Below are positions 13,559 through 22,415 of a stretch of DNA of 64,000 nt, piece by piece. Location of the stretch: positions 1 through 64,000 of the IMG/VR virus record IMGVR_UViG_2862830631_000005; one strand, written 5' to 3'. How positions within the stretch are numbered: the stretch's first letter is position 1; the number at the start of each line of letters is the position of its first letter. The position numbers were made by a program, and so were the translations under genes. The DNA is from a virus. Taxonomy: Duplodnaviria > Caudoviricetes. The notes under the pieces are model-generated. The model was not told the origin of the DNA. It worked only from the letters and a program-made list of their open reading frames with translations, and did no database searches.

Positions 13559-14761
13559 TCAGGTCCCCTTCACGTTGAGCACCTGGCGCAGCGTGGTGAT
13601 CACGTCGACCAGGGGTTCCGCATCGGCCATCACCTGGTCGATGTCCTTGTAGCAGCTGGGGATTTCGTCCACCAGCTTCTCTGCGATGTCCGACCGCCAC
13701 TCGATGCCCTGCATCTGGTCAGCGAGATCCTGTGCGGTGAAGAGCTTCTTGGCCTGGCTGCGCGAATGCCGTCGACCCGCCCCATGTGGTGCCGAGTACA
13801 GGCCAGGTGCGTACCCCTTGCCGCGCACCACGTACGACCGGCTGCCCATGGATCCGGGGATGACACCCGGCTTGCCCTCGGTCGCGTCGATAGCGCCCTT
13901 GCGAGTCAGCCACACGTACTTGTCACCGTGCAGCACGCGGGTCGTGTAGTTGTGGTGGCAGTTGATGCGCTCCAGCTCGACGCGCTGAGGCTGCACGCCC
14001 AGCCACCATGCGAACACCTGCACGAAGCGATCCATCATCTCGGCGCGGTTGAGATAGGCAAAACGCTGCGCCCACCCCAGATCCTTGATGTACCGGTTGA
14101 ATCCGTGCGTATCCTCCATGAGCCACGCCAGATCTCGGTGGGGCAGCTTCTCCCCAATCTGGTCGCAGAACACCTGTGCGGCCTTGATGTGGCGCTGGGC
14201 GATCTTGTTGCCCACACCACGAGAACCGCTGTGCAGGAACAGCCACACATTGTCCTCGGCGTCCACGCACAGCTCGATGAAGTGGTTGCCGCCGCCGAGT
14301 GATCCAAGCTGCTCCATCCACTTCGGCGAATGCGACAGGTCCACATCCAGGTCTTGCTGGAGCTGGGTCAACTCCTCGTGACGCTTCCGCGTGAATGAGA
14401 ACCTCGACAACGTCGAGTTGTAGTTGCCGGGGGAGAGCGGAATGGCCTCTTCGAGCTGTCGGCGCAACGACCCCAGGTCGCGACTCATCCCAGCACCGAA
14501 CAGCCGGTCGCCCGTGAAGCGCGTCTTGACTGCGATCATCCCGCAGCCGATGTCCACACCCACCGCGGCCGGCATCACCGCACCAACCGTGGGGATCACC
14601 GTGCCCACCGCAGAGCCCTTACCCGAATGGGCATCAGGCATCAACGCAATGTGCGGGTAGACGAACGGCATCGAGGCGATCTCGTTGGCCTGTTCGATGG
14701 TGGCCTGATCGATCTCACTCGCGAATGAAACAACCTTCGAGTTCAGCAGTGTGTAGCTCAC
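13559..14761 (-). CDS. rtcB: RtcB-family RNA ligase
   Basis: MPDAH, VGVDIGCG, LGSLGGGNHF, LHSGSRG, HHN, RKGA, PHGAGR motifs. Confidence 0.97.
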   Translation of the reverse strand: MSYTLLNSKVVSFASEIDQATIEQANEIASMPFVYPHIALMPDAHSGKGSAVGTVIPTVGAVMPAAVGVDIGCGMIAVKTRFTGDRLFGAGMSRDLGSLRRQLEEAIPLSPGNYNSTLSRFSFTRKRHEELTQLQQDLDVDLSHSPKWMEQLGSLGGGNHFIELCVDAEDNVWLFLHSGSRGVGNKIAQRHIKAAQVFCDQIGEKLPHRDLAWLMEDTHGFNRYIKDLGWAQRFAYLNRAEMMDRFVQVFAWWLGVQPQRVELERINCHHNYTTRVLHGDKYVWLTRKGAIDATEGKPGVIPGSMGSRSYVVRGKGYAPGLYSAPHGAGRRHSRSQAKKLFTAQDLADQMQGIEWRSDIAEKLVDEIPSCYKDIDQVMADAEPLVDVITTLRQVLNVKGT

Positions 14762-14964
14762 TTGCCCAGCACCTCCAGGGCCTTCTTCAGCTCCTTGCGC
14801 AGCTGCTTGATCTCCCCCACGGTGAGACGGGTGGCCGCCCACCTCGCGTGGTCGGTATCCATCTGCACCAGGATGTCCGCCTCCCGCGTGCCGATGGCGT
14901 CGATGTTGACCTCGCCGCCGCTCTTGGTCTTCATGCGGGTGGAAAACTTCTTGGTATTGATCAC
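14758..14964 (-). CDS. hypothetical protein
   Basis: Coupled ORF. Confidence 0.6.
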   Translation of the reverse strand: MINTKKFSTRMKTKSGGEVNIDAIGTREADILVQMDTDHARWAATRLTVGEIKQLRKELKKALEVLGK

Positions 14965-15179
14965 GATTCGAGCAGCTCCTTGATGATGTCGCCAATGAAG
15001 TGGTACGTCTTCGTGTGAATGGCCTTCTGGGATGTCTTAGCGCTCTGGTAGATCACGTCCACCTCGAAGTACACCGAGTCCGTGCCCTCTTCGCAGTAGC
15101 CGTTGAATGCAACATCGAAGATTGACCCGTAGCGCTCCCCAACCTCGGATAGAAGCCTGCACCCCAGGCGCTTCGACAT
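14961..15179 (-). CDS. hypothetical protein
   Basis: Coupled ORF; start uncertain. Confidence 0.5.
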   Translation of the reverse strand: MSKRLGCRLLSEVGERYGSIFDVAFNGYCEEGTDSVYFEVDVIYQSAKTSQKAIHTKTYHFIGDIIKELLES

Positions 15180-15342
15180 CGCATCGAAGCAACCCGGGAT
15201 GAGGCGTTCCTCCACCGCGGTCACAGAAGGCCCTGACGCTTCAGAAGAGCCCAGATGAGCATCCCGAGCCACCGCCAGAAAGTGGGGTTTCCCATTGCCA
15301 TGTCGAGTACATTACGGGCCCACCTGTTTCACTCCTGAACGC

Positions 15343-15369
15343 AAAAAACCCCAGGTCAGAGACCTGGGG
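15343..15369 (-). terminator. intrinsic terminator ending the tRNA cluster
   Basis: CCCCAGGTC-TCT-GACCTGGGG-TTTTTT on minus strand. Confidence 0.85.
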
Positions 15370-15375
15370 CTGTTG

Positions 15376-15446
15376 CAGTTCGTAGGGGACTCGAACCCCT
15401 ACCTACAGATTGAGAATCTGGGATGCTGCCTTTACACCAACGAACC
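15376..15446 (-). tRNA. tRNA-Glu(CTC)
   Basis: Cloverleaf, loop TT-CTC-AA, GGTTCGAGTCC T-arm. Confidence 0.9.
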
Positions 15447-15785
15447 ATTGCTGACGACCCACTGGCCGTCATCACGAACCTCCGTCTTAAGGTTCACCGG
15501 CCACATGTCGCGCTCAACTCGGGCCTTCAGAAGCGTCTCCTGGCCACACTGACGCTTCACCCATGTGCGGAACGTTGAGGTTTGCGCCATGCGCTTGAAC
15601 GCCAACCGCTTGTTCTGCAACTGACTGCGCTCATCGCGAGCCTCACCAACGGCGCCGGAAGCCCTGTGAGTGACTCGGACACCGGTTTCCCGCTTGTTCT
15701 GATTCTGCCCACCCTTGCCGCCGGCACGAAATGTGTCGACCTGGCAGTCATCAAGGGTGACCGAGAATGCTAGTTCCATACTCAC
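15432..15785 (-). CDS. GGQ peptidyl-tRNA hydrolase / ArfB(YaeJ)-like release factor
   Basis: FRAGGKGGQNQNK..V..H..ERSQLQNKRLA. Confidence 0.92.
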   Translation of the reverse strand: MSMELAFSVTLDDCQVDTFRAGGKGGQNQNKRETGVRVTHRASGAVGEARDERSQLQNKRLAFKRMAQTSTFRTWVKRQCGQETLLKARVERDMWPVNLKTEVRDDGQWVVSNGSLV

Positions 15786-15860
15786 GTCCCGACGACGGGA
15801 TTTGAACCCGTGTATCCACCTCGACAGGGTGGCGTCCTGGGCCGCTAGACGACACCGGGA
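15786..15860 (-). tRNA. tRNA-Asp(GTC)
   Basis: CCACC-CT-GTC-GA-GGTGG. Confidence 0.92.
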
Positions 15861-15936
15861 TTGTTGGACTTGACGCGTACCTCACGGGTCAACTTTCTGG
15901 GAATCAAACCCTGGAGCTGCTTGACCAAAACTCCCG

Positions 15937-16010
15937 CATTCCGAGCGGGATTCGAACCCGCACTCTCCTGAGTGAAAATCAGGTGGGATGACCAATTACC
16001 CTATCGGAAC
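15937..16010 (-). tRNA. tRNA-Glu(TTC)
   Basis: CCTGA-TT-TTC-AC-TCAGG. Confidence 0.92.
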
Positions 16011-16016
16011 ACAATG

Positions 16017-16084
16017 TGGAGTACCGGGGAATCGGACCCCGCCTCTGAGTTTGCAAAACTCGGAGTCTCACCAGACAGCACCCC
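16017..16084 (-). tRNA. tRNA-Ala(TGC), truncated D-arm
   Basis: G3:U70 pair, loop TT-TGC-AA, T-loop TCCGATT. Confidence 0.75.
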
Positions 16085-16085
16085 G

Positions 16086-16202
16086 TTAAGCCGCCTTCCG
16101 GCGATGTGGACGACCGTGCCCCTTGTTGCGTGCTCCGTATGTTGGAGTCAACGCATGATGATTGGGGCACAGCACTCGCAGATTCGCCCGCGAGTTGTTG
16201 GT
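16086..16202 (-). pseudogene. C-terminal remnant of an HNH homing endonuclease
   Basis: TNNSRANLRVLCPNHHALTPTYGARNKG...* with no N-terminal part. Confidence 0.65.
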
Positions 16203-16241
16203 GTAGGTCTCTTGACGGACCTATTGTGCAAAAAAGAGCTG

Positions 16242-16313
16242 AGCCCCTACGACGATTCGAACGCCGCACGCCGATTTACAAGATCGGAGCTTTTCCTACT
16301 AAGCTATAAGGGC
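16242..16313 (-). tRNA. tRNA-Thr(TGT)
   Basis: CCGAT-CT-TGT-AA-ATCGG. Confidence 0.92.
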
Positions 16314-16314
16314 C

Positions 16315-16385
16315 TGGTAGCCGGTCAAGGAATCAAACCCTGCTTAGTTGGATGTAAGCCAACCTTCGTCTCAGACTAACCAGCC
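16315..16385 (-). tRNA. tRNA-Val(TAC), truncated D-arm
   Basis: GTTGG-CT-TAC-AT-CCAAC; CCA encoded. Confidence 0.8.
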
Positions 16386-16386
16386 A

Positions 16387-16464
16387 TGGAGCATCCGCAC
16401 GGAATCGAACCGAAACTTTCAGGGTGGAAGCCTGACGTGCTAGACCGTTAAACACTACGGACGC
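16387..16464 (-). tRNA. tRNA-Gly(TCC)
   Basis: TCAGG-CT-TCC-AC-CCTGA; TCCA end. Confidence 0.92.
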
Positions 16465-16484
16465 ATAGGTATTCAATTATGTTG

Positions 16485-16551
16485 CGCGACAGGAGGGAGT
16501 CGAACCCCCATCCGACCGCTTAGGAGGCGGCTGGCCGTCCAGTGCTGCCGC
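16485..16551 (-). tRNA. tRNA-Arg(CCT), truncated D-arm
   Basis: GCCGC-CT-CCT-AA-GCGGT; GGTTCGACTCC. Confidence 0.8.
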
Positions 16552-16705
16552 ATCGGACCTTGCTAATGATCTCCAAGTCCTCATACTCGCGGGACTCTTC
16601 GTAATCCCACTCGCGCCGCCACAGACGATCCTCAGCGGCCCGCTGACGCAACGCCAACATGTCACCGCCACAACACCCTCGGCAACACGTCCTACGTCGC
16701 AGCAT
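16520..16705 (-). CDS. small hypothetical protein overlapping tRNA-Arg
   Basis: GGAGGT RBS; stop falls in the tRNA anticodon loop. Confidence 0.4.
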   Translation of the reverse strand: MLRRRTCCRGCCGGDMLALRQRAAEDRLWRREWDYEESREYEDLEIISKVRCGSTGRPAAS

Positions 16706-16727
16706 GGATGACACAGCTACCTCCAAG

Positions 16728-16802
16728 TGGTAGGGACACCGGGTACTGACCCCAGGATGCCGTCTTATCAGAACGGAGTGATAACCATTTCACTATGTCC
16801 CA
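16728..16802 (-). tRNA. tRNA-Ile(GAT)
   Basis: CCGTT-CT-GAT-AA-GACGG; atypical T-loop; CCA. Confidence 0.85.
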
Positions 16803-16803
16803 G

Positions 16804-16877
16804 TAGGCCCAGAAGGAATTGAACCCTCGTCCCCGGATTAAGAGTCCGGTGCTATTCCCAACTTCAGCTATAGGCCC
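16804..16877 (-). tRNA. tRNA-Lys(CTT)
   Basis: CCGGA-CT-CTT-AA-TCCGG. Confidence 0.92.
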
Positions 16878-16981
16878 ATATCCGGCAGTAACGGGGCCGG
16901 GGCCGAGTAGTCTTCAGCCACCCGATGGCCTACTACTACCTCTTTCGTCGTCGCGCCGGGTCAGGGCGGTCGGGATTTGCG

Positions 16982-17055
16982 TACTCGACGCGAGAGTCGA
17001 ACTCGCAAGCACCTGAGTTTGAATCAGGCGGCTTTGCCGGTTTGCCTAGTCGAGC
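16982..17055 (-). tRNA. tRNA-Leu(CAA), short variable loop
   Basis: CCTGA-TT-CAA-AC-TCAGG. Confidence 0.9.
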
Positions 17056-17056
17056 A

Positions 17057-17530
17057 TTACGCCGCAGCTTTCCACGGCTTGTTTGTGTCGCACTGAGAAT
17101 GACAGTTGGGACAGAGAAACCTCAGGTTCTCGGCGCGGTTATCGAGAGGGTTGCCGTCTATATGATCAATCTCCAGAACGATTGGAAGCCCCATCCATGA
17201 ATCATCCAACCCGCATAGCTCACACACCGCTGGACGACCGATCTCGCTCAGTGCGCGGCGAAGGCGTTTGACATCTTCACGGTTACTACCCTCAGGGCGA
17301 ACCACAAGGATCTCAGTGGCCGCCTTTCGGCGGTTTGACGTCCCTCGACCGGCAGTCGTGTTTCGAAAGTGGCTTGTATCCAACCCCATGCGTACCACAC
17401 GATTACGCATATGGAAGTGGCTACCGCCCGCCACCTTGATACCTAGTCTGCGGAGCACGTCTGACATCGACGTGCAACTAGCGACCGCATCCGCCACCTG
17501 GGCGTCGGTATATGTTCTTTGTCTCCCCAT
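17057..17530 (-). CDS. HNH homing endonuclease between two tRNA-Leu genes
   Basis: CELCG..LEIDHIDGNPLDNRAENLRFLCPNCH. Confidence 0.92.
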   Translation of the reverse strand: MGRQRTYTDAQVADAVASCTSMSDVLRRLGIKVAGGSHFHMRNRVVRMGLDTSHFRNTTAGRGTSNRRKAATEILVVRPEGSNREDVKRLRRALSEIGRPAVCELCGLDDSWMGLPIVLEIDHIDGNPLDNRAENLRFLCPNCHSQCDTNKPWKAAA

Positions 17531-17534
17531 TGCG

Positions 17535-17607
17535 TACCGAGGGCGGGGGTCGAACCCGCATACACCTGATTCTAAGTCAGGCGGCTCGCCAGATGGCCTA
17601 CCTCGGC
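17535..17607 (-). tRNA. tRNA-Leu(TAG), short variable loop
   Basis: CCTGA-CT-TAG-AA-TCAGG. Confidence 0.9.
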
Positions 17608-17652
17608 ATATCGGGGAAGCCCCCGTAGTTCGGGATCCCCCCTGTGACCTAT

Positions 17653-17727
17653 TGGAACCGGGAGTCGGATCTGCACCGACGTAGGTCGGCTTTGCAGGCC
17701 GCCGCTTAACTACTCAGCCATCCCGGC
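17653..17727 (-). tRNA. tRNA-Cys(GCA)
   Basis: loop CT-GCA-AA; U73-CCA. Confidence 0.88.
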
Positions 17728-17982
17728 TTGTTCCCACCCCGGCCAATCATGGATGGTGGGAATGCGGCCCTGAGATCCATTCAGAGCCACGTTCACCTGC
17801 AGGGCGTAGGAAAGCCATGGACGAAGGTCATCCACGTCCTCTCCGTTGCCCTCAGCCTCATCTCTGGCAGCCTGCAGGATCTCTGCTATCTGCTGTCGAC
17901 GGGCCACGACGGCCGGATGGCTGTTGAACCATTCGATCGCCGGCTGGAGAAACTTGGGATCTTCCTTCAGCAAGCCAGCCAT
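17710..17982 (-). CDS. hypothetical protein whose stop lies in tRNA-Cys
   Basis: MAGLLKEDPKF...; AGGGGAA RBS. Confidence 0.6.
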   Translation of the reverse strand: MAGLLKEDPKFLQPAIEWFNSHPAVVARRQQIAEILQAARDEAEGNGEDVDDLRPWLSYALQVNVALNGSQGRIPTIHDWPGWEQAGMAE

Positions 17983-17995
17983 CGTTTCCCCTAAG

Positions 17996-18069
17996 TGGTC
18001 AGACCGGACGGGCACGATCCGTCCCCTGCACAGTCACAGTGTGCAATGCTTCCGCTACACCACGGCCTT
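17996..18069 (-). tRNA. tRNA-His(GTG)
   Basis: GCACA-CT-GTG-AC-TGTGC; atypical T-loop ATCGTGC; CCA. Confidence 0.85.
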
Positions 18070-18072
18070 GTG

Positions 18073-18145
18073 CGCCCCTGAAAGGATTCGAACCTCCACA
18101 GGCATGGCTTCGTAGGCCATCGCTCTTCCGTTGAGCTACAGAGGC
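18073..18145 (-). tRNA. tRNA-Arg(ACG)
   Basis: ATGGC-CT-ACG-AA-GCCAT. Confidence 0.92.
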
Positions 18146-18181
18146 AGTTGAGCTTTAACCATCTGCTTTATTAGATTGCAG

Positions 18182-18529
18182 TTAGCGCAAAGGGTTTGAT
18201 ACCCTTCCGGCCAACCGCGATTCCTTAGCTGCTGGCCGCTCCTGGCTAGCAGGAGCAAGCAAGCACAACGCTCGATGCAACCAAGTAGCAGCCGCTAAGA
18301 GCCCGCCATCCGGGTCGTCCACCGCATAACACGGCAGATCACCAAACTTCTCACGGTACATCTCGATAGCAGTGGCATGCCCGCCCTCATAAGACCAACC
18401 GATGAACGCGCACGCACGCTCAGCCTCAGCCGTAGAAGGCAAGGGCCCCCAGAAGTCAGGCACGGCGCTGCCACCCATCCATTTCCATCTGACTGCGATG
18501 CGAACGGTGGTCGTCATCGTCATAACCAA
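18182..18529 (-). CDS. hypothetical protein
   Basis: ORF only. Confidence 0.4.
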   Translation of the reverse strand: MVMTMTTTVRIAVRWKWMGGSAVPDFWGPLPSTAEAERACAFIGWSYEGGHATAIEMYREKFGDLPCYAVDDPDGGLLAAATWLHRALCLLAPASQERPAAKESRLAGRVSNPLR

Positions 18530-18728
18530 CCGAAACGCAAATCAGGTACCAACCCGGCTTAACCCAAAGCTCAAGGTTCTCGCCGTGAACATTTAACCCA
18601 CTATCCTCGGCGACATACAGCAGGGCGTCAATCGACCGCTTAACAGCGTCGGGCGTCATAGCGCTATGACAGGCGTGATAAAAGAAATGCTTCTCAGGCA
18701 CACTCGGCATGAAACAACTCCCCCGCAT
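18456..18728 (-). CDS. hypothetical protein
   Basis: ORF only. Confidence 0.4.
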   Translation of the reverse strand: MRGSCFMPSVPEKHFFYHACHSAMTPDAVKRSIDALLYVAEDSGLNVHGENLELWVKPGWYLICVSVGYDDDDHRSHRSQMEMDGWQRRA

Positions 18729-18757
18729 ACTCGGCGACCATCTTCTTTGATTCCATC

Positions 18758-18831
18758 TGGTTGCGCAGCTGGGATTCGAACCCAGAGCCTCGGCTTATGA
18801 GACCGAGATGTTCCCCTTACACTACCGCGCA
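18758..18831 (-). tRNA. tRNA-Met(CAT)
   Basis: TCGGT-CT-CAT-AA-GCCGA; CCA. Confidence 0.92.
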
Positions 18832-18887
18832 ATATCCGGATTGGTTCGCCTCTCACCGGCATCGAGGAGTGGTTTCCACTTCATACG

Positions 18888-18962
18888 TCGGAACGCTTGG
18901 ATTCGAACCAAGGGCCTCCCGGGTTTCAACCGGGCGCTCTCACCTCACTGAGCTACGATCCG
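18888..18962 (-). tRNA. tRNA-Phe(GAA)
   Basis: CCCGG-TT-GAA-AC-CCGGG. Confidence 0.92.
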
Positions 18963-19040
18963 AGGAGTCCCACCCATTCATGCCAGCCCCTCTGGCAACC
19001 TGTATTCACTCTTAGTGGCCACCAGGCGGGTGGGGGTAAG

Positions 19041-19126
19041 CGGAGGGCTGTGGGCACGATCCACACGGGTTGTCTACCGCGCACCCCTTAGCAGGGGGCC
19101 CCAGCTCCCTGGCTGGTTAGCTCTCC
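19041..19126 (-). tRNA. tRNA-Ser(GCT)
   Basis: GCCCC-CT-GCT-AA-GGGGT; long variable arm. Confidence 0.85.
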
Positions 19127-19260
19127 AAAGTTCCCGGTCGCTCTGCCAGTTGAGACGTATACCCCTGACGCACCAACAGTCCTTCGCGCGAACTAGGTGT
19201 TGGCTCCCACCGTGCACGGCAGGCGACGAGGGCAGGTGGATTCGAACCACCAACCACCAG
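19127..19260 (-). ncRNA. circularly permuted tRNA mimic (YrlA/Y-RNA-like)
   Basis: Order 5' CTGGT, T-arm GGTGG TTCGAAT CCACC, acceptor 3' strand, insert, acceptor 5' strand, D-arm, ACCGG 3'. Confidence 0.7.
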
Positions 19261-19263
19261 TTG

Positions 19264-19352
19264 CGAAGAGCGGAGGTCTTGATCCCCAAGCAGCATCACC
19301 TGCTACCCGGTATTCGACACCGGTCGGGGCACTCGCCCCTGCTTCACTCTCC
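19264..19352 (-). tRNA. tRNA-Ser(CGA)
   Basis: CCGGT-GT-CGA-AT-ACCGG; long variable arm. Confidence 0.8.
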
Positions 19353-20064: not shown

Positions 20065-20141
20065 TCTCGCCGTGAGGAGTCGAACCTCCACACCCGAAGG
20101 AAGGGCTTTACAGGCCCCGTTGCTCACCTATGCGCGACGAG
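20065..20141 (-). tRNA. tRNA-Tyr(GTA)
   Basis: GGGGC-CT-GTA-AA-GCCCT; variable arm; reduced D-arm. Confidence 0.85.
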
Positions 20142-20434
20142 ATTGGAGGTGCGGCCTACAGACAAATACCGCACTACCACGCCATTTCACCGGATTATCG
20201 TTTCCCGGCTTGTCCCCCAGATCCCTCCAGGAGGCGCGTACGCCTGGTCCTTGTGAACCACTGTTCATGTCGAAAGCTACTCTGCGGCGTTCCCTTCGCC
20301 GTTGGGATGGCCGTCCCATGGCTGCAGTACTGACCTACAAACAGGATCCGCCTTGCGGGCTCGTCCTGCCCCGATTCTGCTCCACAGTCGGGGATTAAGG
20401 CGCTTTAACTCTTCGACAGGGAAAGTCTTTTGCT

Positions 20435-20510
20435 TGGATAACATCACAGGAATTGAACCTGCGACCTTCTGTTCTCAATACAGATGCTCTACCAATTGAG
20501 CTAGATGTTG
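20435..20510 (-). tRNA. atypical tRNA, anticodon TGA (nominally Ser) with a class-I body
   Basis: TCTGT-AT-TGA-GA-ACAGA; 5-nt variable loop; C1:A72; U73-CCA. Confidence 0.8.
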
Positions 20511-20912
20511 TGACCGGAGACGTGCTTCCCCATGAAGGTCCGTAACCTTTTGAGCTACAGAATGCTTCACGCCTCTCGCGCTTCAGGCTGGCGACCTGTT
20601 TCGCGCTCTCCCTCAACCGCATGCGAGCCGTCGCCCGTCGCGAGATCGGTCATGGAACCCGCCTTCGCCTGCCAGGGCTCTGACTCAGTTCCTTCCGCAC
20701 CCACACCAGCCTTAGTCGATAACACTTTCGGGCCTACGTTAGGTCATGGTGTCCTCAGCACGTTGCCGTTGGACCATGTGTACCTCGGTGGCGCACCGCC
20801 CCTTCGAGGACGGTGTCGGGTTGTGGATTGCATGGATTGCCCTCACGGGTGGCGAGCTGTCACACTCACCTTTCAGTGCCTTACGGCACCTTATCGGCCA
20901 TGCCCGAAATCT
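20511..20912 (-). ncRNA. large structured ncRNA (GOLLD-like candidate)
   Basis: No credible minus-strand CDS; many GNRA-capped hairpins (GTGCC-GTAA-GGCAC, CCC-GTGA-GGG, ACG-GCAA-CGT) and long-range TTTCGGGC/GCCCGAAA pairing. Confidence 0.55.
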
Positions 20913-21319: not shown

Positions 21320-21393
21320 ATTGGAAGCATGGCGGATGGAGTGGGCTCTGTACCATCTCTTACCTATGGCCATTCCCGACCATGCTTCACGAG

Positions 21394-21831
21394 TGGAGCT
21401 GGCGGGAGTCGAACCCGCGTCTTACGTTCTTCGTACTCAGTCTTCTACGTGCGTAGTCCAGACAGGTGTAATCCCAGCCAGCTACTGGACATACGGCTGC
21501 GGATTTGCTTCGGATTTACCCCCGAGTGGGCTGCAATTTTAGCCTACGGGTGCGCGGGCGCTACGGTCTGCCAACCATTCCTGCGGTCCCCGTATTAGCG
21601 ACGCTGGATTGGTAGACGGAACGGGTAAACCGCTCTACCCCAACGGACTTCAGCTAGGCTGCGACGAGAAACTCAGCCTCGATGTCCTCAACGGAGAAAT
21701 CGAGCTCAGCTTCCCAGGCAGCGAAGTCAGCATCAGTATCGACTGCGCTTAATTTGTTTTGCACTGTTACGGGCGTTGCATCCCGGCACGCTTCCCTGGA
21801 CTCTGTTCGCAATCGAAACCAGAACAGCCCC
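21394..21831 (-). ncRNA. ssrA: tmRNA
   Basis: 5' GGGGCTG..GGTTTCGA, 3' GGGTTCGACTCCCGCCAGCTCCA; tag ORF 21746-21654 ending LVAA*. Confidence 0.95.
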
Positions 21832-21876
21832 ATGAAACTTACTTGATATCCACTATTTAGTTCTCAAAGTACTGAG

Positions 21877-21947
21877 CAGGGTCGGAGGGATTCGAACCCC
21901 CATAAGCGGCTTTGGAGACCACGGTCCTGCCGTTGGACGACAACCCT
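21877..21947 (-). tRNA. tRNA-Trp(CCA)
   Basis: GTGGT-CT-CCA-AA-GCCGC. Confidence 0.92.
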
Positions 21948-22083
21948 AAAGCCAGGTATTCGACCACCAGCCCTGGCGCTGGCTGAACAGGGCACCACCC
22001 CTTGGTCTGGGCGGCCCGGTCGAGCGGCTTGGAATTTGTTCGAGCCCGGGCCTTCTGCAACCGCTTCGTGGTTACGGAAGGTA

Positions 22084-22116
22084 AGATTACAGGCACAAAA
22101 TCGGGGTGAAACAGGA
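22084..22116 (-). promoter_or_regulatory. candidate promoter of the RNA cluster: CCTGTTTCAC-N16-TAATCT
   Basis: Repeated 11-mer (1 mismatch) plus TANNNT just downstream of a terminator. Confidence 0.6.
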
Positions 22117-22120
22117 GAAC

Positions 22121-22161
22121 AAAAAGGGCCCCTAGCCAGCTCATTCGCCGACCGGGGCCCT
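22121..22161 (-). terminator. intrinsic terminator
   Basis: GGGCCCC...GGGGCCC-TTTTT. Confidence 0.6.
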
Positions 22162-22175
22162 CCTGTGGGCTTGGG

Positions 22176-22415
22176 TTACTGCTTGGTCGGGAACTTGCGA
22201 CGCGGACGGCTCGCTGGGGCCTGGCCGGTCACCATCAGATTGAGATCCTCGTTGGTAAACGGATCATGAGGTCCAGCACCGACGATCGGCTGAACGGACG
22301 CAGCCTGAATGGTGGCAGCCTCCGAGCTGCCGGCCACCACTGGCTTCTTCACGGCCGGCTCGACAGCCTCAACGGCTGGAGCCTCTTCGGCCTTCTTCGT
22401 GGCAGCAGTTGCCAT
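22176..22415 (-). CDS. hypothetical Ala/Pro-rich protein
   Basis: ORF with GAGG RBS, upstream promoter and downstream terminator. Confidence 0.65.
   Translation of the reverse strand: MATAATKKAEEAPAVEAVEPAVKKPVVAGSSEAATIQAASVQPIVGAGPHDPFTNEDLNLMVTGQAPASRPRRKFPTKQ

Follow-up and report, generated by a model that had tools for sequence, protein, structure and literature searches.

We analysed a stretch of 64,000 nucleotides (nt) of viral DNA, positions 1 to 64,000 of the IMG/VR virus record IMGVR_UViG_2862830631_000005 (Duplodnaviria; Caudoviricetes), hereafter called the window. It is part of a 111-kb contig of a 6.2-Mb genome, a draft of 210 contigs, and it resembles the Cluster M and MabI mycobacteriophages. 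The window carries an array of transfer RNA (tRNA) genes, all on the minus strand, which runs from 21947 to 15375. ARAGORN called 21 tRNA genes in this array, and Rfam added two weaker tRNAs, one transfer-messenger RNA (tmRNA) and one GOLLD RNA. The subject of this work is a small protein gene of the array, coding for a GGQ (RF-1) domain, which has no stop codon of its own ahead of the tRNA-Glu that follows it.

The GGQ open reading frame (ORF) occupies 15432..15785 on the minus strand and comprises a GTG start, 117 codons and a TAA. Upstream of it, tRNA-Asp(GUC) was called by ARAGORN at 15786..15859 (minus strand), with an Rfam score of 57.8 bits at 15787..15859, where the gathering cutoff of the Rfam tRNA model is 29 bits; its acceptor stem, discriminator and C74 (= 15786) were read from the sequence. 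Downstream, tRNA-Glu(CUC), the final gene of the array, was called by ARAGORN at 15375..15446 (minus strand; Rfam, 55.8 bits at 15376..15446). The initial annotation of this locus stated that the ORF begins right after tRNA-Asp and that its last four sense codons plus TAA are the first 15 nt of tRNA-Glu, and both statements were confirmed. The GTG (15785-15783) adjoins tRNA-Asp position 74, and the codons G-S-L-V plus TAA (overlap at 15432..15446, minus strand, read as 15446..15432) are tRNA-Glu positions 1-15. The +1 nucleotide of tRNA-Glu coincides with a codon boundary of the ORF, and the stop is T13-A14-A15 in the D-arm/loop, so that the frame closes only inside the tRNA. The point of interest is a bona fide domain gene without its own stop; the overlap itself is deterministic and not a matter of chance.

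The predicted ribonuclease P (RNase P) site, 15446/15447, lies inside the ORF, 12 nt ahead of the TAA. All of the pre-tRNA part of the ORF (15447..15785, minus strand; 113 codons, the last being AAT for N113) lies upstream of this site. It had been proposed that tRNA maturation creates a non-stop messenger RNA here, and at the level of the sequence the proposal holds: an RNA running to the predicted RNase P +1 would end with codon 113, AAT, and would contain no stop. Added A residues would give no in-frame stop either. The homologues have 112 residues in the MabI prophages, 113 in EniyanLRS and 114 in Nanosmite, compared with the 113 codons of the pre-tRNA part in the window. The tail beyond the C-terminal Trp has a modal length of three residues, found in 42 of the 120 best of 788 database homologues. 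By these alignments, the window ORF up to tRNA-Glu is of natural family length, so that the message left without a stop by an RNase P cut would still encode a protein of normal length.

The encoded protein had been described as a GGQ rescue factor. Pfam PF00472, the RF-1 domain, scored 62.2 bits against a cutoff of 35 (E 5.5e-17), and phrog_3122, the phage small GGQ family, matched at 2.5e-56 over residues 2-113. GenBank phage records label this family 'RF-1 peptide chain release factor'. In an alignment of 39 sequences, the window protein kept G25-G26-Q27 and all 12 invariant residues. The AlphaFold (AF2) model had a predicted local distance difference test (pLDDT) score of 86.2, and the modelled fold comprises the GGQ alpha/beta core, a long helix at 70-93 and a terminal beta-hairpin at 101-112; residues 113-117 form a coil, which is the block of lowest pLDDT (63). 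The best Foldseek matches were RF2 and RF1 (E 5e-6 to 1e-3, with a TMq of ~0.5). Sequence and model together indicate that the protein is a stand-alone RF1/RF2-type domain, closest to domain 3 of RF1/RF2.

Two other identities were tried and rejected. ArfB was ruled out by NF006718, whose score of 24.5 bits is far below the cutoff of 100 and whose match is confined to residues 7-40; the modelled C-terminal half also shows the long helix and beta-hairpin, versus the linker and basic tail of an ArfB-like architecture, and no ArfB or ICT1 chain was present among the sequence or fold matches listed for the protein. PrfH was ruled out by TIGR03072, which gave 59.6 bits against 166.65 and covered model positions 104-164 of 200. 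By these profile comparisons the protein is not ArfA, ArfB or PrfH. The GGQ/RF-1 part of the earlier description stands, and the rescue function is putative, since the domain is of the RF1/RF2 type and not ArfA or ArfB.

For conservation of the overlap, we used 80 comparator loci (8 GenBank phage stretches, 6 from genome contigs and 66 IMG/VR contigs; cited below by L numbers where needed), in which the GGQ frame was extended to its stop and ARAGORN was run. Ten of these loci are syntenic, with tRNA-Asp, GGQ and tRNA-Glu in this order; they comprise three GenBank MabI prophages and seven IMG/VR contigs, and may be partly redundant. The overlap was found in 0 of the 10. Nine syntenic loci, as in the M. 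abscessus MabI prophages, have the stop 6 nt before the tRNA, and one has it 41 nt before. Over all 80 loci, a same-strand tRNA lies within 50 nt of the stop in 17, and the stop is kept before the tRNA in 15 of them, at 5-41 nt. These include other lineages with a tRNA close behind, at +6 nt (L024, L043/L045), +7 nt (L040) and +5 nt (L077). The overlap (-27 nt) seen in L052/L053 is with a tRNA-Thr of 52.9 bits.

The majority of GGQ homologues are not adjacent to tRNAs at all, and the genes for the closest proteins, from Nanosmite (86%) and EniyanLRS (84%), sit among protein genes, not tRNAs. Among the 120 best homologues, the tRNA-Glu-derived tail occurred once, in the window's own protein. 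Megablast of 15000-19000 returned nothing beyond short tRNA matches in 4 records, and the exact tRNA-Glu 5' sequence pattern had no match in viral contigs or metagenome contigs. The protein search of 400 same-family genomes gave, outside the element's own genome, only full-length host RF1/RF2-type matches. The initial annotation had named lack of conservation in related phages as a result that would count against its proposal, and this is the result obtained; from these comparisons, the GGQ-gene overlap is lineage-specific.

In the course of this comparison, 46 homologue frames were checked for internal stops, and four small-GGQ homologues each showed one in-frame TGA with homology continuing beyond it (L040:2214, L044:2223, L064:2205 and L038:2187; loci of 60-64% GC). 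Three of the TGA codons align with W75 of the window protein, in a column that is Trp almost without exception, and one is at a Phe/Trp column. They could reflect TGA read as Trp, a programmed prfB-like control, or pseudogenes. The 4-kb loci of these four homologues contained no tRNA(tca), and a coding-density test for TGA=Trp on them was not informative at ~60% GC. Two virome contigs also carry anticodon-CTA tRNAs, called 'Pyl' by ARAGORN and amber-suppressor-like (L059:3284-3362 and L075:4133-4210), with the small GGQ gene 1-1.8 kb upstream of them.

The origin of the joint was approached through phages without the gene at this place. Nanosmite, Rey and Aziz have a spacing of 59-76 nt between tRNA-Asp and tRNA-Glu(ctc), with no ORF between. 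Homology between the window and Nanosmite ends at C74 of tRNA-Asp and resumes 3 nt before tRNA-Glu. The Nanosmite tRNA-Glu(ctc), gene 120, has 94% identity to that of the window and already carries the same TAA at positions 13-15, with no ORF running into it; the MabI tRNA has TAG there. By this comparison the in-tRNA TAA pre-dates the overlap. The simplest history would be that the GGQ cassette came to occupy the tRNA-Asp/tRNA-Glu(CUC) spacer in this lineage. In this one phage, the 3' joint would then have lost the stop and the 6-nt spacer, so that the frame would run four codons into tRNA-Glu and would now be closed by the conserved T13-A14-A15.

Stops built into tRNAs were counted over 125 tRNAs of 12 arrays; the arrays in this and in the C74 and start-offset counts given below were chosen for holding a GGQ gene and are a biased sample of tRNA arrays. 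For a frame that enters at +1, the first stop falls most often at position 15 (23 of the 125 tRNAs), and for a frame that enters at +2, the commonest first stop ends at position 10 (68 of 125). Stops within 18 nt were found in 75 of 125 tRNAs, against 21.8 +/- 4.3 in shuffles. The tRNA sequences carry stops at conserved positions, U8-A9-G10 and N13-A14-R15 act as fallback stop codons, and closure of a stop-less frame within the tRNA is to be expected in general.

On the start side, the GTG adjoins tRNA-Asp position 74 in the window and in 10/10 syntenic loci. Exact abutment, with ATG, was also found behind tRNA-Leu(CAA) in L025, tRNA-Ser(GCU) in L027/29/35 and tRNA-Thr(UGU) in L067, which makes four lineages and four different tRNAs in which the GGQ start follows directly after position 74. 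Encoded C74 is present in 268 of 269 ARAGORN tRNAs of the window array and 24 related loci, where the full CCA is encoded in 68 and a single C in most. Following the 125 tRNAs, an ATG or GTG opening at least 50 codons occurred 8 times at offset 0, compared with a mean of 1.32 (maximum 5) at offsets 1-60. No Shine-Dalgarno sequence was found outside the tRNA at the GGQ starts of the window and the syntenic loci. Leaderless translation in mycobacteria requires an ATG or GTG at the 5' end of the RNA and needs nothing more than that (PMC4633059). Processing of the tRNA-Asp 3' end would leave the GUG at, or no more than 1 nt from, the RNA 5' end, a possible leaderless start. The sequence evidence suggests that tRNA 3' processing makes the translated 5' end.

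According to the initial annotation, the same stop-in-tRNA layout occurs at 17710 (tRNA-Cys) and 16520 (tRNA-Arg). The geometry is correct for both, and the ORF at 17710 is a real gene. This ORF (17710..17982/18015, minus strand) ends on a TAG (17712-17710) that lies 16-18 nt inside tRNA-Cys (17653..17727). It belongs to phrog_15799 (6.2e-19), and 29 phage records matched it in tblastn. The phrog_15799 family ends inside the next tRNA in 5/5 loci; in Nanosmite, Reindeer, PegLeg and Bongo that tRNA is tRNA-Leu(CAG) and the overlap measures 10 nt, and the window gene overlaps tRNA-Cys by 18 nt. Feature tables record the overlap in three of the four phages, the Reindeer tRNA being from an ARAGORN call only. 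When the phrog_15799 protein was searched against viral contigs, no related locus was confirmed. The ORF at 16520..16726 (minus strand) has its end within a weak tRNA, in the anticodon loop, and was rejected as a gene, with no phage homologue, no PHROG match and flat GC content over the three codon positions (GC1/2/3); it is probably a chance frame. The weak tRNA itself (16485..16551, minus strand) was found by Rfam only, at 32.7 bits and with no ARAGORN call, and its anticodon was read as CCT (Arg); the Nanosmite annotation includes a comparable 68-nt tRNA-Arg(cct).

Four real protein genes are present in the window array, and their stop-to-tRNA gaps are +36 nt (phrog_14116), -18 nt (phrog_15799), +1 nt (HNH) and -15 nt (GGQ). 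The phrog_15799 gene is taken here as 17710..17982, and the HNH endonuclease gene (17057..17530, minus strand) has its ATG 3 nt past tRNA-Leu(tag) and its stop 1 nt ahead of tRNA-Leu(caa). Tight gene-tRNA packing is general in this array. Similar junctions were noted elsewhere: the HNH gene gp102 of PegLeg (L086 47-56) extends 10 nt into tRNA-Met, and in prophi86-1 (L007, 126 and 608/609) gene 126 begins right after tRNA-Leu(caa) and the stop of gene 127 adjoins tRNA-Lys(ttt). Two further ORFs of the window, 21857-22144 (which runs through tRNA-Trp) and 19074-19289, were dropped as genes for lack of a PHROG match.

The array also contains a phage-encoded tmRNA at 21391..21831 (minus strand; Rfam RF00023, 104.7 bits), for which there was no ARAGORN call. 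Its tag, read from the Rfam-aligned resume codon, is 30 residues long, acidic and unusually long, and ends in the canonical -LVAA. The host tmRNA scored 141.6 bits and has a tag of 12 residues, and no ArfB above the model cutoff was found in the host genome. The GOLLD RNA lies at 20147-20575 (minus strand; Rfam RF02032, 162.1 bits, gathering 150) and has tRNA-Ser(tga) (20435-20510) embedded within it; a tRNA-Sec-like match just downstream, at 20065-20142 on the minus strand, had 27 bits and an E of 0.071, below the gathering value of 47. The second weak tRNA is at 16731-16802 (minus strand; Rfam, 42.7 bits). Upstream of tRNA-Trp, a hairpin with a T-run at 22120-22158 (minus strand) was read by eye and is absent from the terminator-scan list; it may mark the end of the phrog_15606 gene (22176-22415) and the start of the array transcription unit.

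At the other end of the array, a terminator-like hairpin of 11 pairs (7 G-C) followed by a T-run lies directly 3' of tRNA-Glu(CUC), at 15337..15371 on the minus strand. It was also present in the minimum free energy (MFE) fold, and the region 15335..15500 had z = -4.9. Past tRNA-Glu and this hairpin, ~440 nt downstream of the GGQ gene and on the same strand, lies a gene for an RtcB-like RNA ligase (13559..14995; Pfam RtcB, 1.6e-107; phrog_1075). The gene order RF-1, tRNA-Glu, RtcB is common to the window and the MabI prophages. This arrangement recalls the PrfH-RtcB rescue-and-repair pair (PMC6514570), in that a GGQ homologue is close to RtcB and the PrfH model matches the GGQ part. It differs in that the match is below the PrfH cutoff, the window protein has 117 residues versus ~200 and lacks a codon-recognition-like domain, and the window GGQ gene is parted from RtcB by the tRNA, the terminator-like hairpin and a small ORF.

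Taken as a whole, the array would be one long single-strand transcript or operon, from 21947 to 15375, closed by the terminator-like hairpin. The full 117-residue protein could be made only from RNA with tRNA-Glu still attached, and the terminating ribosome would have to melt the acceptor and D stems of this tRNA. Each RNase P cut for tRNA-Glu would leave a stop-less message that ends at codon 113 and lacks the 3' hairpin, and this fragment may be short-lived. Ribosomes on the cut message would need either tmRNA, of the host or the phage and with tagging, or stop-independent release. The relatives would differ only in that a ribosome translating the cut RNA reaches a stop codon 5-7 nt short of the end.

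The reading that we favour, by a modest preponderance of belief, is that the overlap is a tolerated by-product of extreme packing and of mosaic recombination at tRNA boundaries and not a dedicated switch. Three things are observed directly: the geometry of the joint, the lack of such a joint in relatives, and the fact that the pre-tRNA part has the length natural to the family. The cost of the overlap would be low, given the stops built into tRNAs and the disorder of the extra tail. Several points weigh against this reading. The tRNA 5' end is located exactly where the stop should be, and the element encodes a tmRNA whose tag has a degradation-type end, in a host without ArfB above cutoff; this placement, the tmRNA and the lack of an above-cutoff host ArfB fit a functional non-stop design equally well. 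In L052/L053, the stop falls 27 nt into the tRNA and again right past the conserved G-K-W core, an independent recurrence. The 5/5 conservation in phrog_15799, with two tRNA partners, is more stable than a neutral accident predicts. The counts over tRNAs carry the sampling bias described above, and the processing, non-stop and leaderless steps are ones that we infer from the sequence.

The GGQ protein might instead be made solely from unprocessed or only 5'-processed transcripts, which still carry tRNA-Glu and the hairpin, while the cut upstream piece is degraded before translation; there would then be no meaningful role for tmRNA, and only the 117-residue form would exist. We regard this as unlikely, though it deserves to be taken seriously. 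A strong terminator-like hairpin is present only after tRNA-Glu, which would leave the cut fragment without a 3' stabiliser. After the same cut, the relatives would retain only 5-7 nt past the stop, which suggests that expression from the precursor is the norm for these cistrons, and the extra tail in the window protein is short and disordered. However, the RNA-decay argument is pure inference, and the exact abutment of the start to tRNA ends in four lineages suggests that the processed RNAs are the translated species.

A broader view, which we advance tentatively and hold to be improbable, is that tRNA excision serves in large phage tRNA arrays as a general means of expression, the counterpart in a bacterial virus of mitochondrial punctuation. 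In mitochondria, flanking tRNAs are excised to leave leaderless messenger RNAs, some of which have incomplete stops. By analogy, tRNA cuts would free the embedded cistrons as leaderless messages that start right after position 74, and the same cuts would set the 3' ends within a few nt of the stop or upstream of it. The GGQ and phrog_15799 cistrons would then be obligately non-stop after processing, and their yield would depend on the competition of tmRNA (phage or host) with stop-independent release, for which the array's own GGQ protein might be responsible. The window shares with the mitochondrial system a cistron flanked by same-strand tRNAs, a start 0-1 nt from the tRNA 3' site, a 3' end that RNase P would define, and GGQ rescue factors (putative in the window) in the same system. 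Unlike that system, the window belongs to a bacterial phage, the processing is predicted, and no stop would be completed by A-addition (AAT + A).

The initial annotation drew an analogy with arfA and suggested a feedback loop. In such an evolved arfA/brfA-like loop, RNase P would serve to turn the GGQ message into a non-stop one. The product would be tagged and destroyed as long as tmRNA is plentiful; once trans-translation is saturated, the 113-residue protein would be released, possibly by itself, and would add rescue capacity. The natural C-terminus, at a codon boundary, is precisely where the predicted cut falls, a phage tmRNA with a tag ending in -LVAA lies in the same array, the host has a tmRNA and no ArfB above cutoff, and L052/L053 provide an independent second case. 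The precedent is ArfA, whose messenger RNA loses its stop through RNase III cleavage; its product receives the tag, and ArfA of full length is unstable (PMC3989581). E. coli ArfA and B. subtilis BrfA come from rescue-factor genes that are expressed from non-stop messenger RNA and kept low by tmRNA. They resemble the window gene in that a cut inside the ORF ahead of the stop would yield a truncated product of functional length that is opposed by tmRNA tagging. They differ in that here RNase P, acting at a tRNA, would take the place of RNase III or a terminator, and in that the protein here is a GGQ hydrolase domain, whereas theirs recruits RF2; moreover, the layout here is unconserved. Conservation does not support the loop: the tRNA-Glu tail was found in 0/10 syntenic relatives and in 0 of the 119 other top homologues, with the window's own protein as the one case in 120, and most homologues are not beside tRNAs. 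In addition, of the 17 comparator loci that have a tRNA at most 50 nt downstream, 15 keep the stop 5-41 nt ahead, the in-tRNA TAA is older than the overlap, and the protein is neither ArfA nor ArfB, with a putative rescue activity. We consider this arfA-like feedback possible but unsupported, and rather less probable than the precursor and excision alternatives.

Artefact or decay, whether as a pseudo-tRNA-Glu(CUC), a decaying GGQ gene in a dead prophage or an assembly error that removed the stop, is very improbable: the genome is a draft of 210 contigs and the junction is unique to this element, but tRNA-Glu has 55.8 bits, a 7-bp acceptor stem and 94% identity to the tRNA annotated in the sequenced phage Nanosmite, the GGQ protein retains 12/12 family-invariant residues, and all three frames are without a stop in the last bases before tRNA-Glu, so that a single indel error would not restore one.

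Much of the setting is already described. Mycobacterial and mycobacteriophage tRNA arrays carry RF-1, Pth, tmRNA and HNH genes, and ~81% of mycobacterial arrays have a ~430-nt structured RNA (PMC5966550), which probably corresponds to the window GOLLD RNA; prophiGD54-2 has 21 tRNAs, a tmRNA and a release factor (PMC8092301). The window element is one such array, and the main text of these two descriptions, in the portions covered, does not mention gene-tRNA overlap. Comparable overlaps are annotated for coding sequences of Cluster M phages (Bongo gp105, PegLeg gp107 and gp102, and Nanosmite gp110), from the same phage group and the same array, which run 10 nt into the next tRNA with the stop on U8-A9-G10. 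The window gene at 17710 belongs to this family; unlike the GGQ case, these are different genes of unassigned function. The Cluster M overlaps are present in GenBank feature tables, and no discussion of them was found in the part of the literature covered. Nor did that literature yield any account of cistrons that stop inside a tRNA, or of tRNA punctuation, for phages or bacteria, and the literature matches listed for tRNA punctuation in phages concerned mitochondria only. Within these sources, the module of tRNA array, tmRNA, RF-1 and HNH, the non-stop control of ArfA and the tRNA-defined ends of mitochondria are known.

Even if the overlap is the tolerated by-product that we favour, the case shows that the fallback stops of the tRNAs make the loss of a gene's own stop nearly cost-free. 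If translation does use the processed RNAs, a single transcript of a phage tRNA array would couple tRNA maturation with leaderless initiation and with ribosome rescue, an unexpected parallel to mitochondrial gene expression. Annotation would also be affected, where the usual practice is to avoid protein genes overlapping tRNAs. Such coupling would further help to account for the presence of a tmRNA and a minimal GGQ hydrolase in these phages.

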